The notes: generated by a model not told the origin, from the sequence alone. Shown: positions 7,383-12,425, numbered from the stretch's first letter. The stretch is DNA of 64,000 nucleotides from Sphingomonadales bacterium UBA2683 (GCA_002354635.1 DELZ01000005.1:40626-104625); one strand, 5' to 3'. Made by a program: numbers and translations.

Positions 7383-7751
7383 TTGACCGGCCTCGCCCTG
7401 GCGGGCGCGGGCCTCGCGCACCTGCTGCGCAGCGACCTGCCGTTCATCCGCGGCGAGACCCGCCGCGTGCCCGCCCAGATCATCCGCCACCAGATCACCC
7501 GCCGCGGCGGCGCCACCCTGTACAGCGCGGTCCTGCTGGTCCCGGACGAGCGCGGCGGCTTTATCGAGGTCCGCGACCCGCTGACCACGCCCTTCCCGAC
7601 CCCGGTGATCGGCGAGCGGCTGACCATCGTCCACCCCGCGGGCTTCCCGCGGCTGGCCCGCATCCCCTATCCCTGGTTCCGCGGCGGCGTCTATGCGCTG
7701 CTCGGCTATGTGCTGGTGGTGTGCGTGCTCGAGCTGACCGGCCTCGGCTGA
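7383..7751 (+). CDS. Small membrane protein (TM - beta-rich core - TM, DUF3592-like topology); start uncertain
   Basis: Hydrophobic N- and C-termini, high GC3. In-frame stops at 7350/7353 leave only a TTG/CTG start. Confidence 0.6.
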   Translation: MTGLALAGAGLAHLLRSDLPFIRGETRRVPAQIIRHQITRRGGATLYSAVLLVPDERGGFIEVRDPLTTPFPTPVIGERLTIVHPAGFPRLARIPYPWFRGGVYALLGYVLVVCVLELTGLG

Positions 7752-7791
7752 AGCCTTGGCTTGCACCCCGAAAAGCGGCTAGGGTGACCCG

Positions 7792-8419: not shown

Positions 8420-8643
8420 CCTTCTCCCGCGAGGGAGAAGGATACGAAGCCTTGTCGCCGAAGCGTCAGCGCAGGCGGCTAGGCGCAGTTGGATGAGGGT
8501 GTTCCGATGGTTGGTTGTTGCGGCGTGCTCGCGCAGTACACAGCCCTTCTCCCGTGAGGGAGAAGGATACGCAATCTTGTCGCCGGAGCGTCAGCGCAGG
8601 CGGCTAGATGGAGTTGGATGAGGGCGCTCTGATGGTTGGTTGC
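8420..8643. repeat. Two tandem ~100-bp REP-like units (period 125 bp), each starting with the hairpin CCTTCTCCC-N4-GGGAGAAGG
   Basis: Copies at 8420 and 8545 align along their length (gatacg..cttgtcgccg.agcgtcagcgcaggcggctag..gttggatgaggg..gatggttggtt). Confidence 0.9.
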
Positions 8644-8676
8644 CGTGCCGCCTCTCACAGAGCAATTCCGCCACTA

Positions 8677-8886
8677 CCCGACGAGCGCGGCGGCTTTATC
8701 GAGGTCGGCGATCCGCTGACCACGCCCGTCCGGGCCCCGGTGATCGGCGAGCGCCTGACCATCGTCCACCCCGCCGGCTACCCGGGCCTCGCGCGGATTC
8801 CCTATCCGTGGTTCCGCGGCGGGGTTTATGCCGGGCTGGGCTATTTGCTGGTGGTTTGCGTGCTGGGGGTCACGGGGCTGGGGTGA
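8677..8886 (+). pseudogene. 5'-truncated duplicate of the 3' 210 bp of the 7383-7751 gene
   Basis: 59/69 residues identical to 7542-7751 (PDERGGFIEV...TGLG*); upstream sequence is REP repeat. Confidence 0.85.
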
Positions 8887-8931
8887 GGCTTTTCACTTTA
8901 AAAAACGATACGAAGCATTGCGGCGTGTCGT

Positions 8932-9795
8932 CTAGCTATAATTCTCTATTATCTGTGCGGCCGCTCGATCAATCTCCGGAAACAACGTACCGGAATCGAT
9001 TCCGATGACACGCAATTCCTTCTTGATGCTCTTTTTGGAATTTCTCGGTATTCTGAGCGAAAAAGAAGCGATTTCTTTGGAAAATGCTGATTGATCTTCC
9101 CATTTCAGACCAAAAGCTAAGAACGCACCACTTTGGGCAATAATACGCGCATTATTCTGCTTTGCGACTACATAATAAGGTCTCGAAAGATCATCTTTTT
9201 TTATTCTTGGCTGAAAATGAGGCTTTTCCTCACGAATAAACTGGAGCAAACGATCCGTTGGCTGTAATTTATGAAAATCGGAAATATTTGTTGCAGATGT
9301 ATTCTGCAATATCTCTTTCTCTGAATTTTTCAGGTTTGCAAGGTTACACACGCAGCTAATCGAATCACTGTCGTAGTATTTTTTCCTATCTGAACTTATC
9401 CGATAAATTATTAAACTTCCATCTTCTTCTTCACACTCTGTAACCGCAAAATATAGCGCAACCAATGGATTGCTAGTGACATCCATTAGTCGAGTGGGTA
9501 GTCCGAAGTGCTGCATACGCACTAGCCGGTCAAACATCGTACGGTCATGCAAAAAATGATCAGGATATCTCGAAACAAGATCACGCACTATTATATATTC
9601 CGAGCTTAAAATCCGTTTAGACTGTCTAAATATACTTGGTTTTGCTCCCCATGATATTGAACCATGGCCTCGATAACTGCTAAATGTATCAGATTCATCG
9701 GAGAGTTTCTGTACTGCCTGTAACGTGTCCGAAACGCTTTCAACCAAGCCTATCTCTCGTGGCCTACTCTGGACAGTATTGGTCTTCGTGATCAT
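8932..9795 (-). CDS. FRG domain-containing protein
   Basis: YRGH..SWGAKPSIFR, MQHFGLPTRLMDVTSNPLVALYFA, NARIIAQSGAF, GIDSGTLFPEID; AT-rich. Confidence 0.9.
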   Translation of the reverse strand: MITKTNTVQSRPREIGLVESVSDTLQAVQKLSDESDTFSSYRGHGSISWGAKPSIFRQSKRILSSEYIIVRDLVSRYPDHFLHDRTMFDRLVRMQHFGLPTRLMDVTSNPLVALYFAVTECEEEDGSLIIYRISSDRKKYYDSDSISCVCNLANLKNSEKEILQNTSATNISDFHKLQPTDRLLQFIREEKPHFQPRIKKDDLSRPYYVVAKQNNARIIAQSGAFLAFGLKWEDQSAFSKEIASFSLRIPRNSKKSIKKELRVIGIDSGTLFPEIDRAAAQIIENYS

Positions 9796-9800
9796 AAAAA

Positions 9801-10787
9801 TTATAGCAAATCATCAAGTTCATCTATTGGATTTACGTCAACTAATATAAGTCGCAACGGTTCATCAGATCTACTCCTCACAATGTAAGCATCGACACTG
9901 ACCTTGTCTTCCTGCATCGCAGAGAGAAGATTAAATTTTAAGTCATCCTTTCGATCCGCGGGAATTGAGAATGAAGGAATGCCTTCCCAGTTAACGTTCC
10001 GAAATTTGCCCCATCCGTTTTCTTTATTGTATTGCACAATATTTACATCAATCGACGAAACTTCTTTGTCTATTTTAATAGATTCCAAGGCGCTCGCCGT
10101 TTCTTGATTAGCGGTGAGAATTTGTCGGGTGCCCAAGCTATCCATCGTAGAAATCGTGACAAGCTTTGCGCTGCGCCTTAAAGGAACGGCCAGTTCGCTT
10201 AGAAGCGGGGTGGCCATTGTGACCAGCGCTGCGTCTTGCTCTGGCGTAATTTGTGCCAAAAGGTCACTATGGCTGATGAGATAAGCTCGCCTCTCAACTT
10301 CGGATATCAATCTAGCCAACAATTCGCTTTCACTGGGAGCTAACCCACGATCTGTTTCCAAACGGGAACGAAGAACTTCGATCGCAGCACTTGAATCAAA
10401 AATGTTATTTTCAACCAGTTCAAAAAATTCGGAACGAAGAGCATTGTCATCAATCAGATCAAGTGCCGCACTCGTCTCAATCGGCTGAAAAACACGTTCA
10501 ATAATATATGTCCAAAGCGCCGTAAGAGGAACATCAATTTTGGGCTTTTCATCCACCTCTTCTGAGGCGGCAATTTTCAAATTAAAGCTTCCACGTTCGA
10601 ACGGAAATAGGTCAATATTTGTGCGGGAGGTTGTAGTAACTCTCTTAGAAAAACGGCCAGTTTTTCTGAATTGATCTAGCTTTACTGAAAGGCGAGCGGC
10701 AGCGTATTGAAAACGAGCAGCCTCATAAAAATCCATGCGGTTAAGATCAGACAAACCACCCTGAAAACTAAAATTCAATTCGTCCAT
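9801..10787 (-). CDS. Hypothetical protein upstream of and coupled to the FRG gene (from memory resembles DUF7946/DUF7947-type proteins; unverified)
   Basis: Long AT-rich ORF (track extends it to 10838; ATG at 10787 preferred). N-term FSFQGGLSDLNRMDFY...GSF, C-term IVQYNKENGWGKF beta-rich region; 5 bp from the FRG ATG. Confidence 0.7.
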   Translation of the reverse strand: MDELNFSFQGGLSDLNRMDFYEAARFQYAAARLSVKLDQFRKTGRFSKRVTTTSRTNIDLFPFERGSFNLKIAASEEVDEKPKIDVPLTALWTYIIERVFQPIETSAALDLIDDNALRSEFFELVENNIFDSSAAIEVLRSRLETDRGLAPSESELLARLISEVERRAYLISHSDLLAQITPEQDAALVTMATPLLSELAVPLRRSAKLVTISTMDSLGTRQILTANQETASALESIKIDKEVSSIDVNIVQYNKENGWGKFRNVNWEGIPSFSIPADRKDDLKFNLLSAMQEDKVSVDAYIVRSRSDEPLRLILVDVNPIDELDDLL

Positions 10788-10960
10788 TGGGTACCATCCT
10801 GTTATTTTGGATACTATTGAGTTTTCCCGGATACACAAGGCAAAACGCCTCTTTCCTACACCAAGCCAAATAGGTTAACATTTCTCCCCTCAACAAACCA
10901 AAACCCGTAGCCGCACCCCTGTGCCGCGCTCGGGATGGTTGCCGGAAAGGAGTATGATCG

Positions 10961-12061
10961 ATGACCTATCAGGATGAATTTGCGCGGCGGCTGGGCCAGC
11001 GGGCGGGGGACGGCAAGGCCGCTGGCGGTCCTTCGACAGGCTCGGAACGAACGGACGAGGGGGAGAGACGTCATCCTGAACCTGTTTCAGGACCCCGGGC
11101 GGCCAGGCCGGAAGATCGGGGAAAGACGGACGGGGTCCTGAGACGAGCTCAGGATGACGATGAGGGGCGAGTTCAGGATAACGGTGATTATAATTCCGTT
11201 AGTGGTGAGCCTGTCGAACCACGCTTCTCGGACGAGAAGCGCCTTTCGGAGTCGCAGACGGCGCGCAGCGCCACCGGCTCAGGGCTAACGGACCAAGACG
11301 ACACCACCCCAACCCGCACCCCCCGCCACGACGGCTGGCTCCCCGAAACCCGCGTCAAGTTCCTCGAAGCGCTCGCCCGCACCGGCAATGTCCAGGCGTC
11401 GGCTTATTATGTCCAGCTCAGCCGCCAGTCGGCCTATGACCTGCGCCGCCGCGACCCGGATTTTGCCCGGGCGTGGCGGGCGGCGCTGGTGCTGGCGCGC
11501 GATGTCGCCGAGGATGCGCTGCAGGAGCGGGCGATCGAGGGCATCGAGGAGCCGGTCTATTATCATGGCGAGGTCGTGGGCATGCGCCGCCGCTACGACA
11601 GCCGCCTGCTGCTGGCGCATCTGGCGCGGCTGGACAAGATCGCCGAGGAGATTCCGGCGCAGCGCGGCGCCGCCCGCTTCGAGGAGATGCTGGAGGCGAT
11701 CCGCACCGGCGCGGACACCGCGCCGCTGATCGCCACCCCGACCGACGAGGAACTGGCCACCGCCGCTGCGCGCGCCGAGGCGCCGCCGCCGGCGGAGGAA
11801 GAGGGCGACGAATTTTACGCGGTCCACTGGCCGGCGGAGGAGGACCGGCCGGTCGACTATTACCGGATGACCCCGGAGGAAGCCGCCGCAATGGCACGCG
11901 AGGTCCCCGGCCTTGTCGCCATCCCCACAGGCACCCGCAACGGCGCCCTCGCCACCGCCATGCACATCGAGGAACTGGCCCGCGCGGAAGCGGCGGAGAA
12001 GGCCGCCGGGGACGACCCCTGGCCGGAGGAAGGCGACGGCGCGGGGGGGTTAAGAATATGA
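10961..12061 (+). CDS. Small-terminase-like HTH protein of the sphingomonad RHDGW type, with a repeat-derived N-terminus
   Basis: Core RHDGWLPETRVKFLEALARTGNVQASAYYVQLSRQSAYDLRRRDPDFARAWRAAL...ERAIEG...RRRYDSRLL; GGAG RBS-like sequence upstream. Confidence 0.6.
   Translation: MTYQDEFARRLGQRAGDGKAAGGPSTGSERTDEGERRHPEPVSGPRAARPEDRGKTDGVLRRAQDDDEGRVQDNGDYNSVSGEPVEPRFSDEKRLSESQTARSATGSGLTDQDDTTPTRTPRHDGWLPETRVKFLEALARTGNVQASAYYVQLSRQSAYDLRRRDPDFARAWRAALVLARDVAEDALQERAIEGIEEPVYYHGEVVGMRRRYDSRLLLAHLARLDKIAEEIPAQRGAARFEEMLEAIRTGADTAPLIATPTDEELATAAARAEAPPPAEEEGDEFYAVHWPAEEDRPVDYYRMTPEEAAAMAREVPGLVAIPTGTRNGALATAMHIEELARAEAAEKAAGDDPWPEEGDGAGGLRI
11030..11291. repeat. REP-like palindromic units inside the 10961 ORF
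   Basis: CCTTCGACAGGCTC unit 11030-11054; CGTC-tagged inverted pair 11069-11096 / 11132-11159 (24/28 match); CCGTTAG..GAGCCTGTCGAA 11196-11220 with partner GGCTCAGGGCTAACGG ending 11291. Confidence 0.85.
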
Positions 12062-12120: not shown

Positions 12121-12425
12121 GCGCTCCGCGCCCGACGCGGAGCCCTGCGCCCAAGGCACCATGGTGGAAGGCCGCGCAGGGCTCCGGATCAGGTCCGGAG
12201 CACAGGGGGTGATGGGCTATGAATCGCCATGAAGAAACCGTTCGCCCTGAGCCTGTCGAAGGGCCCCTCGCGACCGAAAACCGTCCTTCGACAGGCTCGG
12301 GACGAACGGGTGAAACAAGAAATCGTCATCCATTCTGTCATCCCCGCGCAGGCAGGGATCCAGATAGAGCTGACTATGCCAACGGAAGTGCCGGCAAACG
12401 GGATTCCCGCCTGCACGGGAATGAC
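12121..12425. repeat. Three consecutive REP doublets of different families
   Basis: Inverted pairs 12121-12150 / 12174-12203; 12238-12262 / 12285-12309 (23/25); 12337-12361 / 12401-12425 (21/25, contains ATTCCC-N8-GGGAAT). Confidence 0.9.

Follow-up and report, generated by a model that had tools for sequence, protein, structure and literature searches.

Introduction

Proteins with an FRG domain are widespread in bacteria and prophages, and are predicted to act as NAD-using immune effectors. Frg has been placed in the ADP-ribosyltransferase (ART) superfamily and is there predicted to act as an antiviral effector, possibly an NADase (PMC9503650, PMC12522546), and the PADLOC database lists a family of FRG proteins under the identifier PDC-S15; no experimental report on either FRG or PDC-S15 was found in the literature searched. 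Other ART-fold proteins are known as the products of toxin-antitoxin (TA) pairs, among them MbcA-MbcT, Xre-RES, ParS-ParT and NatR-NatT, in which a cognate gene precedes the gene for the ART-fold protein. For the Pfam families DUF7946 and DUF7947, which also enter into this work, the literature searched yielded no paper.

In this work we analyze a two-gene locus located in a stretch of 64,000 nucleotides from Sphingomonadales bacterium UBA2683 (GCA_002354635.1 DELZ01000005.1:40626-104625), which we refer to as the window and whose first letter is position 1 in all coordinates given here. In this locus an FRG-domain gene follows a larger gene, hereafter the partner, with relatives in DUF7946 and DUF7947. 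The FRG protein resembles other members of PDC-S15 in being foreign, patchily distributed and common in prophages, but PADLOC defines PDC-S15 as a single gene and gives it candidate status only, whereas here the FRG gene is probably coupled to an upstream DUF7946/DUF7947 gene for which there is no PADLOC model. With the Frg clade of the ART superfamily (Aravind group) the locus protein has the FRG motif and domain in common, and the structures nearest to its model are ART-fold toxins and NADases, but at Z scores of 5.1 or less. The placement of a cognate gene upstream of the gene for an ART-fold protein recalls MbcA-MbcT, Xre-RES, ParS-ParT and NatR-NatT; FRG, however, usually occurs without a partner, and the partner is unrelated to the antitoxins of those pairs. 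It is also four to five times larger than antitoxins of the MbcA, Xre, ParS or NatR type. Both Pfam families, DUF7946 and DUF7947, are found in the partner's homologues, with the locus's own protein falling below the Pfam cut-off.

A preliminary description of the locus had presented it as a candidate undescribed system. This stands for the pairing and for the partner, and does not stand for FRG alone, which was already known as the PADLOC candidate PDC-S15; what is new here is the pairing itself, the model-based assignment of an OB fold to the partner, and the three genomic contexts in which the partner is found.

Locus anatomy and insertion site

The locus and its immediate surroundings comprise the following features:

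8932-9795, minus strand: FRG-domain gene, 287 aa, ATG start, intact ORF
9801-10787, minus strand: partner gene, assigned by sequence to the DUF7946/DUF7947 family, 328 aa, ATG start
9801-10838, minus strand: longest ORF of the partner, opening at TTG 10838, intact
9796-9800, minus strand: intergenic spacer of 5 bp, from the partner stop to the FRG start codon
10797-10800, minus strand: putative AGGA ribosome-binding site, 9 nt upstream of the partner ATG
8887-10847, no strand: low-GC islet of ~1.95 kb, holding exactly the two genes and nothing else
8608-8886, plus strand: flanking ORF, from the ORF listing
10961-12061, plus strand: flanking ORF, from the ORF listing

The arrangement initially reported is confirmed in each of its elements. 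Two intact, co-oriented ORFs (8932-9795 and 9801-10838, both on the minus strand) are separated by a gap of 5 bp and lie antisense to the ORFs on either side of them (8608-8886 and 10961-12061, on the plus strand), and GC content is low in an otherwise GC-rich genome, with values of 38-47% across 8900-10800 versus 57-73% on both sides. Neither this anatomy nor this composition is attributable to chance. The start shared with the homologues of the partner is the ATG at 10787, residue 18 in the translation of the TTG-started ORF, and an AGGA lies 9 nt upstream of it, so this ATG is the most likely start of the partner. Inspection of the spacer (9796-9800) revealed no obvious Shine-Dalgarno sequence ahead of FRG, and FRG and its partner are, judging from the sequence, likely to be translationally coupled.

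Promoter and terminator scans of the locus returned scores not above shuffled expectation, the sequence preceding the partner shows no conservation across the seven paired loci described below, and Rfam and tRNA scans detected no RNA gene at the islet. An exact 151-nt contig within the partner gene (10084-10234) occurs in one seawater metatranscriptome, and two runs that are, according to their labels, probably RNA of the organism contain no match to the locus; both observations are uninformative on expression either way.

The host genome (3.32 Mb) contains one copy of FRG. We searched 18 congeneric genomes for the islet and found DNA matching 8932-10838 in none of them, though the flanks match at 73-90%. 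In the six congeners that were examined at the insertion site, similarity ends at ~8886-8892 and restarts at 10845-10851, in keeping with the sharp boundaries that the preliminary description had noted. The equivalent site of these six genomes is occupied by different low-GC cargo of 0.9-7.3 kb, consisting of a 354-aa unknown and a RelA_SpoT protein weakly resembling PADLOC PDC-S33 in G015, a DUF4747 protein and two unknowns in G003, MntP and one unknown in G011, and further unknowns in the remaining examined congeners. The islet is horizontally acquired and lies in a variable chromosomal hotspot. As a possible relative of the partner we considered the 354-aa gene upstream of RelA_SpoT in G015, and discarded it for lack of similarity (BLASTP E 0.16).

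There is no integrase or tRNA close to the islet, and the operon has no mobility gene of its own. The site is bordered by REP-like repeats and by a 251-nt duplicate of the 3′ end of one gene. Wider neighbours are housekeeping genes (flavin monooxygenases, a GNAT acetyltransferase, an M17 peptidase, SerRS and a K+ channel), and the expected association with a defence island is not seen within the window.

The FRG protein

The motifs from which the second protein had been recognized are indeed present. The Pfam FRG model (PF08867) matches residues 41-125 with 67.4 bits (cut-off 25; E 2e-18), the YRG motif corresponds to Y41-R42-G43, and both R42 and G43, as well as Q95 and H96 of the QH motif, are invariant in an alignment of 24 sequences. 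The protein also matches 14 PADLOC PDC-S15 models, of which PDLC04936 is the best (E 5e-104, profile positions 21-296 of 300). Since this match is near full length, the protein is one that has already been catalogued as a single-gene "phage defence candidate". The suggestion in the preliminary description that FRG is related to ADP-ribosyltransferases and linked to defence is supported by this match and by the published placement of Frg (PMC9503650, PMC12522546).

An AF2 model of the FRG protein (pLDDT 86.6) has no strong neighbour in the PDB. In Foldseek the NAD+ phosphorylase toxin MbcT comes out best, with a weak E of 0.1, and the top 20 matches in VIA are mostly ART-fold toxins, again with weak scores (Z of 5.1 or less); the ART-type structural matches include TreX, DT, ExoA, ParT, pertussis S1, MbcT and RES. 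As modelled, the fold is consistent with an ADP-ribosyltransferase-like one. The invariant R42 maps to strand 37-44 of the model, the invariant D105 and a T/S at 107-108 to the next core strand, and the invariant Q221 to a position just before strand 223-227, and from the alignment and the model no invariant Glu could be placed as a catalytic residue. A profile search of PDB sequences returned no solved structure for FRG or for the partner family, and neither protein has a match in NCBIfam.

FRG is rare in the class to which the host belongs, with occurrences in 7 of 401 genomes. Homologues are present on 74 IMG/VR contigs, often directly behind a prophage integrase. The phage family phrog_4962 has ~165 additional N-terminal residues before the part that aligns to the FRG protein, and the split into an FRG gene and a partner gene parallels the organization of these longer phage proteins.

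The partner protein

Homologues of the partner (n=120) come almost exclusively from Alphaproteobacteria, and many of them carry PF25678 or PF25679. Among the aligned members, 12 of 20 match DUF7946 and 7 of 20 match DUF7947, which bears out the resemblance to these families proposed beforehand. The locus's own protein scores 13.5 bits against DUF7947, below the cut-off of 27, and has no DUF7946 match, and it matches a "DUF7946 domain-containing protein" at E 3e-49. By sequence similarity, the partner belongs to the DUF7946/DUF7947 family. An exhaustive profile search recovered only 267 clusters at 50% identity, in which full-length members span ~290-380 aa and many of the remainder are fragments; none of the 267 is long enough to accommodate an extra fused domain. 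PADLOC contains no model for the partner or for any of its clades.

The AF2 model of the partner (pLDDT 85, pTM 0.85) shows an N-terminal alpha/beta and helical part followed by a C-terminal OB fold at ~238-329. All of the top 50 VIA matches fall on the C-terminal domain, and those that can be identified are OB folds with Z scores of 6.6-8.6, including SilF, Teb1, SSB, PriB, RPA and toxin B subunits. The C-terminal domain thus models as an OB fold, a fold assignment only that implies no ligand, and the OB-like region initially suggested for this part of the protein is thereby corroborated. Within the OB domain lies a family-invariant loop, Q-Y-N-K-E-x-G-W-G-K / K-x-x-G-W-G-K. Foldseek searches against the PDB produced weak OB matches only, and those against AFDB clusters, the ESM Atlas and BFVD produced only uncharacterised DUF7946/47 or DUF6575 proteins, among which an Atlas match reaches a TM of 0.91 to a DUF7947-only cluster. 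For the N-terminal 235 residues, the same four collections contained no match of known function.

We also predicted the structure of a complex between the partner and FRG. The median ipSAE was 0.32, a weak value, versus 0.00 for the best control. Of 80 solved complexes, 58 attain that mark, as do 2 of 110 mismatches, and at 0.60 or less a score misleads more often than not unless the pairing is likely beforehand. Runs 2 and 3 of the prediction agree with each other (78% of contacts) and run 1 disagrees. The prediction is weak, and no binding between FRG and its partner is concluded from it.

Co-occurrence of the two genes

A search with the partner profile identified 40 genomic loci, and further loci were checked directly. 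FRG is found directly downstream of the partner only in the three closest of these 40 loci, and the pair was verified at seven loci (the window locus, L001, L002, L003, L071, L231 and L232), where the spacing between the two genes ranges from a 4-bp overlap to +5 bp. This close spacing is kept down to ~55% identity across all seven checked loci. A further 19 contigs, paired up between the match lists of the partner and of FRG by their identical lengths and probably the same in both, would hold additional pairs. Identity drops in step for the two proteins (87/86, 81/74, 77/72, 73/66, 63/58 and 57/54% for partner/FRG). Relative to the closest relative, Ka amounts to 0.09 and 0.11 for the two genes, at saturated synonymous sites from which no Ka/Ks ratio can be obtained, and these values indicate that both genes are under purifying selection. 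Because the pair resides at unrelated sites across genomes, it moves as one unit. In L231, FRG is truncated and the partner is intact.

The preliminary description had anticipated that homologues of the two genes would co-occur. This holds for one clade, that of the seven verified pairs, and fails for most of both families: the partner is absent from 153 of 154 other FRG loci (35-48% identity), the exception being L071 (75%), and FRG is absent from 43 of the 50 partner genes in the tree presented below. FRG and its partner are therefore a co-inherited operon in one clade only.

A slot adjacent to uvrA in sphingomonads illustrates the range of arrangements, containing the pair in L003, the partner alone in L067 and L068, and FRG alone in L063. 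The varied contents of this slot show that the two genes can work, or at least persist, separately. FRG genes without a partner are found next to uvrA in the company of TA genes (L063), immediately behind nrdB and overlapping it by 4 bp (L064/L065 and L066), downstream of nrdB fragments (L072 and L074) and, in other cases, after prophage integrases. Where the partner is solo, it makes up a low-GC islet of one gene, at 38-50% GC against a genomic background of 55-75%, and several of these islets adjoin uvrA and TA genes. The TA modules located beside solo copies of either gene are DUF433-PIN_10, BrnA and PaaA2.

Across FRG loci lacking the partner, no other co-oriented upstream gene recurs. Some ORFs upstream of FRG were considered and rejected: those of 373-378 aa in L158 and L169 are not relatives of the partner (hhalign probability below 1%), and those of 341-385 aa are phage integrases.

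Phylogeny of the partner family

In a tree of 50 partner proteins, the partners paired with FRG form one clade, with a support of 99/100, that is sister to solo sphingomonad copies, and this single, well-supported clade points to a single origin of the pairing. A second clade, with 26 members, is characterized by a divergently transcribed gene of ~200 aa, which is present in 25 of the 26; the lone exception is interrupted by a contig end. The protein encoded by this gene has one N-terminal and one C-terminal hydrophobic helix (2-TM), and no match to it was found in Pfam or PADLOC. The weak coiled-coil matches to ZorA that PADLOC gives for L025 amount to noise.

The remaining genes in the tree are solo. 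One copy, in Agrobacterium vitis, precedes a gene with a weak Abi_alpha match, next to a prophage. Viral contigs carry six partner homologues, of which three are accompanied by the 2-TM gene. On the tree, the contexts of the partner form coherent groups, in which it has FRG downstream, has the divergent 2-TM gene, or stands alone.

Discussion

We interpret the locus as an operon with a role in conflict or defence, with FRG as effector and the partner as the regulator or sensor that governs it, a reading to which we assign a probability of about one half. In the mechanism that we envisage, FRG would do its damage as effector by using up NAD+ or by passing on ADP-ribose, the OB domain of the partner would most plausibly bind nucleic acid or another infection cue through its invariant loop, and the partner would hold or trigger the FRG enzyme, in an anti-phage or some other conflict role. 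The arrangement of the two genes, their foreign origin and hotspot location, the family assignments, the modelled OB fold, the co-inheritance of the pair in one clade and the purifying selection on both genes are established; an enzyme activity for FRG, a ligand for the partner, a physical coupling of the two proteins and a defence phenotype for the pair are what the interpretation predicts. In its favour are also the literature on Frg and the PDC-S15 match, the ART toxins among the structural matches of FRG, the FRG homologues on viral contigs, the single origin and parallel divergence of the pair, the alternative second genes of the partner and the other cargo at the hotspot, with the complex prediction adding little. 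Against it weigh the solitary occurrence of most copies of either gene, the mixed contents of the uvrA slot, the truncated FRG of L231, the housekeeping neighbours in the window, the low scores of the ART-like structural matches and the disagreement of run 1 in the complex prediction.

The same observations can be read in other ways. The two genes might be independent accessory genes, possibly each of them defensive, which became neighbours once in a hotspot and are linked by closeness with no functional coupling between them. Such independence would agree with a pairing that arose once, with the presence of each gene by itself, in a low-GC islet of its own, in sister lineages and in the uvrA slot, with the listing of FRG as a single-gene candidate in PADLOC, and with the decay of FRG in L231, where the partner stays intact. 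It sits less well with a spacing of -4 to +5 bp and an FRG gene lacking its own ribosome-binding site, maintained in 7 of 7 loci to ~55% identity, or with two proteins whose divergence runs in parallel and a pair that relocates between unrelated sites as one unit; the complex prediction, too, is weak yet above controls. On this balance we regard independence as rather unlikely. If the genes are coupled, they could in principle form a classical type II toxin-antitoxin module, in which FRG, as an NADase or ART of constitutive toxicity, would be neutralised by the antitoxin encoded upstream. The MbcAT, Xre-RES and ParST modules have a similar gene order and tight coupling and their toxins are represented in the structural matches, TA modules adjoin solo copies of both genes, and a complex, if weak, is predicted. 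A constitutive toxin would not tolerate solitude, however, and in 153 of 154 loci an FRG protein of like length and the same subfamily stands alone, while the partner is large (328 aa), mostly alone and devoid of a recognisable antitoxin DNA-binding domain. The antitoxin role that had been contemplated for the partner is consequently not supported, given that FRG usually occurs alone, and we consider the toxin-antitoxin reading improbable.

The repeated placement of these genes near nrdB and uvrA raises a further alternative, in which they would serve outside of conflict as accessories to nucleotide metabolism, NAD metabolism or DNA repair. FRG lies right after nrdB in L064/L065 and L066 and behind nrdB fragments in L072 and L074, partner and FRG genes adjoin uvrA in several sphingomonads, and an OB fold could serve DNA transactions. 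A role of this kind would not be expected to show the patchy, foreign distribution observed, with FRG in 7 of 401 genomes of the class and in 0 of 18 congeners, nor the low GC content, the carriage by prophages and the different insertion site in each genome; moreover, the uvrA slot looks like a hotspot and not like an operon, because TA genes gather there too. We therefore give this alternative little credence.

The two genes are otherwise separable, and their coupling came about in, and is limited to, one narrow lineage. The contexts of the partner invite a broader and more tentative proposal, possible in our view but doubtful, in which the OB-fold partner would be the constant, cue-sensing core of unrecognised conflict systems of Alphaproteobacteria and their phages, and different branches of its family would have recruited different killing modules. 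The killing module would be the NAD-targeting FRG enzyme in the locus described here, whereas the largest clade would use the divergent 2-TM protein and Agrobacterium possibly a protein like Abi_alpha.

For the FRG family, the compact natural split into an enzyme gene and a putative regulator gene offers a simple handle on FRG toxicity, on its switching and on its use of NAD+. For the partner, the combination of a small, foreign family with a single architecture, an OB fold as modelled and three phylogenetically coherent contexts is the pattern that would be expected of an effector-swapping sensor, and the partner family, together with its alternative second genes, is the most promising new lead to emerge from this locus.

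Repeats and cargo at the insertion slot

The low-GC islet carrying the FRG gene and its partner is bordered on both sides by repeated sequence. On its left, a 251-nt direct repeat, 80% identical between copies and representing the 3′-terminal segment of a 148-aa ORF, encloses two REP-like units; the second copy lies in an ORF (8608-8886) that lacks the 5′ half and adjoins the islet directly. The right flank carries a palindromic REP-like element with core CCTGTCGAAGG, some copies of which fall within the 5′ end of the ORF at 10961-12061, and further copies of which occur elsewhere in the source genome and in congeners.

Repeats bordering the islet (window coordinates)
7507-7757 and 8642-8892: direct repeat, 251 nt
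8420-8517 and 8545-8642: REP-like units, 98 nt each
11017-11054, 11196-11248 and 12238-12309: palindromic REP-like element

The slot itself (8887-10847) is occupied by other low-GC cargo at the same chromosomal position in six congeneric genomes, in none of which does the cargo include an integrase. The cargo of one genome (G015) comprises a 354-aa unknown protein tightly paired with a 208-aa RelA_SpoT protein of weak likeness to PADLOC PDC-S33, and that of another (G003) includes a DUF4747 protein. The GNAT gene and the 148-aa ORF from which the repeat derives stand in reverse order in congeners relative to the window.

Cargo at the islet slot in congeneric genomes (locus coordinates)
L050 1706-3526
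L051 1383-2296
L052 924-2710
L053 189-2943
L054 915-8208
L055 1456-3055

Genomic neighbourhoods of FRG and partner homologues

FRG genes approximately 48% identical to that of the window lie immediately 3′ of nrdB (ribonucleotide reductase small subunit) and overlap it by 4 bp; this arrangement occurs in two or more distinct genomes, and nrdB fragments precede FRG on a further two metagenome contigs (L072, L074). Of 80 metagenome FRG loci, with FRG proteins 41-45% identical to that of the window, 48 have a conserved small convergent gene of about 68 aa some 100 bp past FRG. Its product may resemble DUF2188; tRNA and Rfam RNA assignments for this feature were ruled out.

In one clade of the partner tree, 25 of 26 members have a conserved divergent gene 50-135 bp from the partner. 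It encodes a protein of ~200-290 aa with a single hydrophobic helix at either end and a helical central part containing an EFRQxWID motif, for which Pfam and PADLOC returned no match.

Examples of associated genes (locus coordinates)
L064 2930-4849: nrdB-FRG
L065 2-1864: nrdB-FRG
L066 2940-4876: nrdB-FRG
L098 4509-4901(-): small convergent gene
L104 3011-3355(-): small convergent gene
L116 4512-4886(-): small convergent gene
L016 7261-7860(-): two-helix protein gene
L024 7169-7858(-): two-helix protein gene
L013 7085-7888(-): two-helix protein gene

In Agrobacterium vitis (L234 7001-8812), the gene 133 bp downstream of a partner homologue encodes 229 aa and matches Abi_alpha weakly; the two sit at the edge of a prophage, recognisable by its tail tape-measure and terminase genes. 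At one paired locus (L231 5978-6892), 0.6 kb from an IS1595 transposase, the partner is intact and FRG is annotated as a 234-aa gene with a 59-aa ORF after it, so that it is probably disrupted.

A slot adjoining uvrA in sphingomonads (L003, L063, L067, L068) contains, depending on the locus, both genes, the partner without FRG or FRG without the partner, and is also found with toxin-antitoxin genes (DUF433-PIN_10, BrnA or PaaA2); it looks like a small hotspot for accessory genes.
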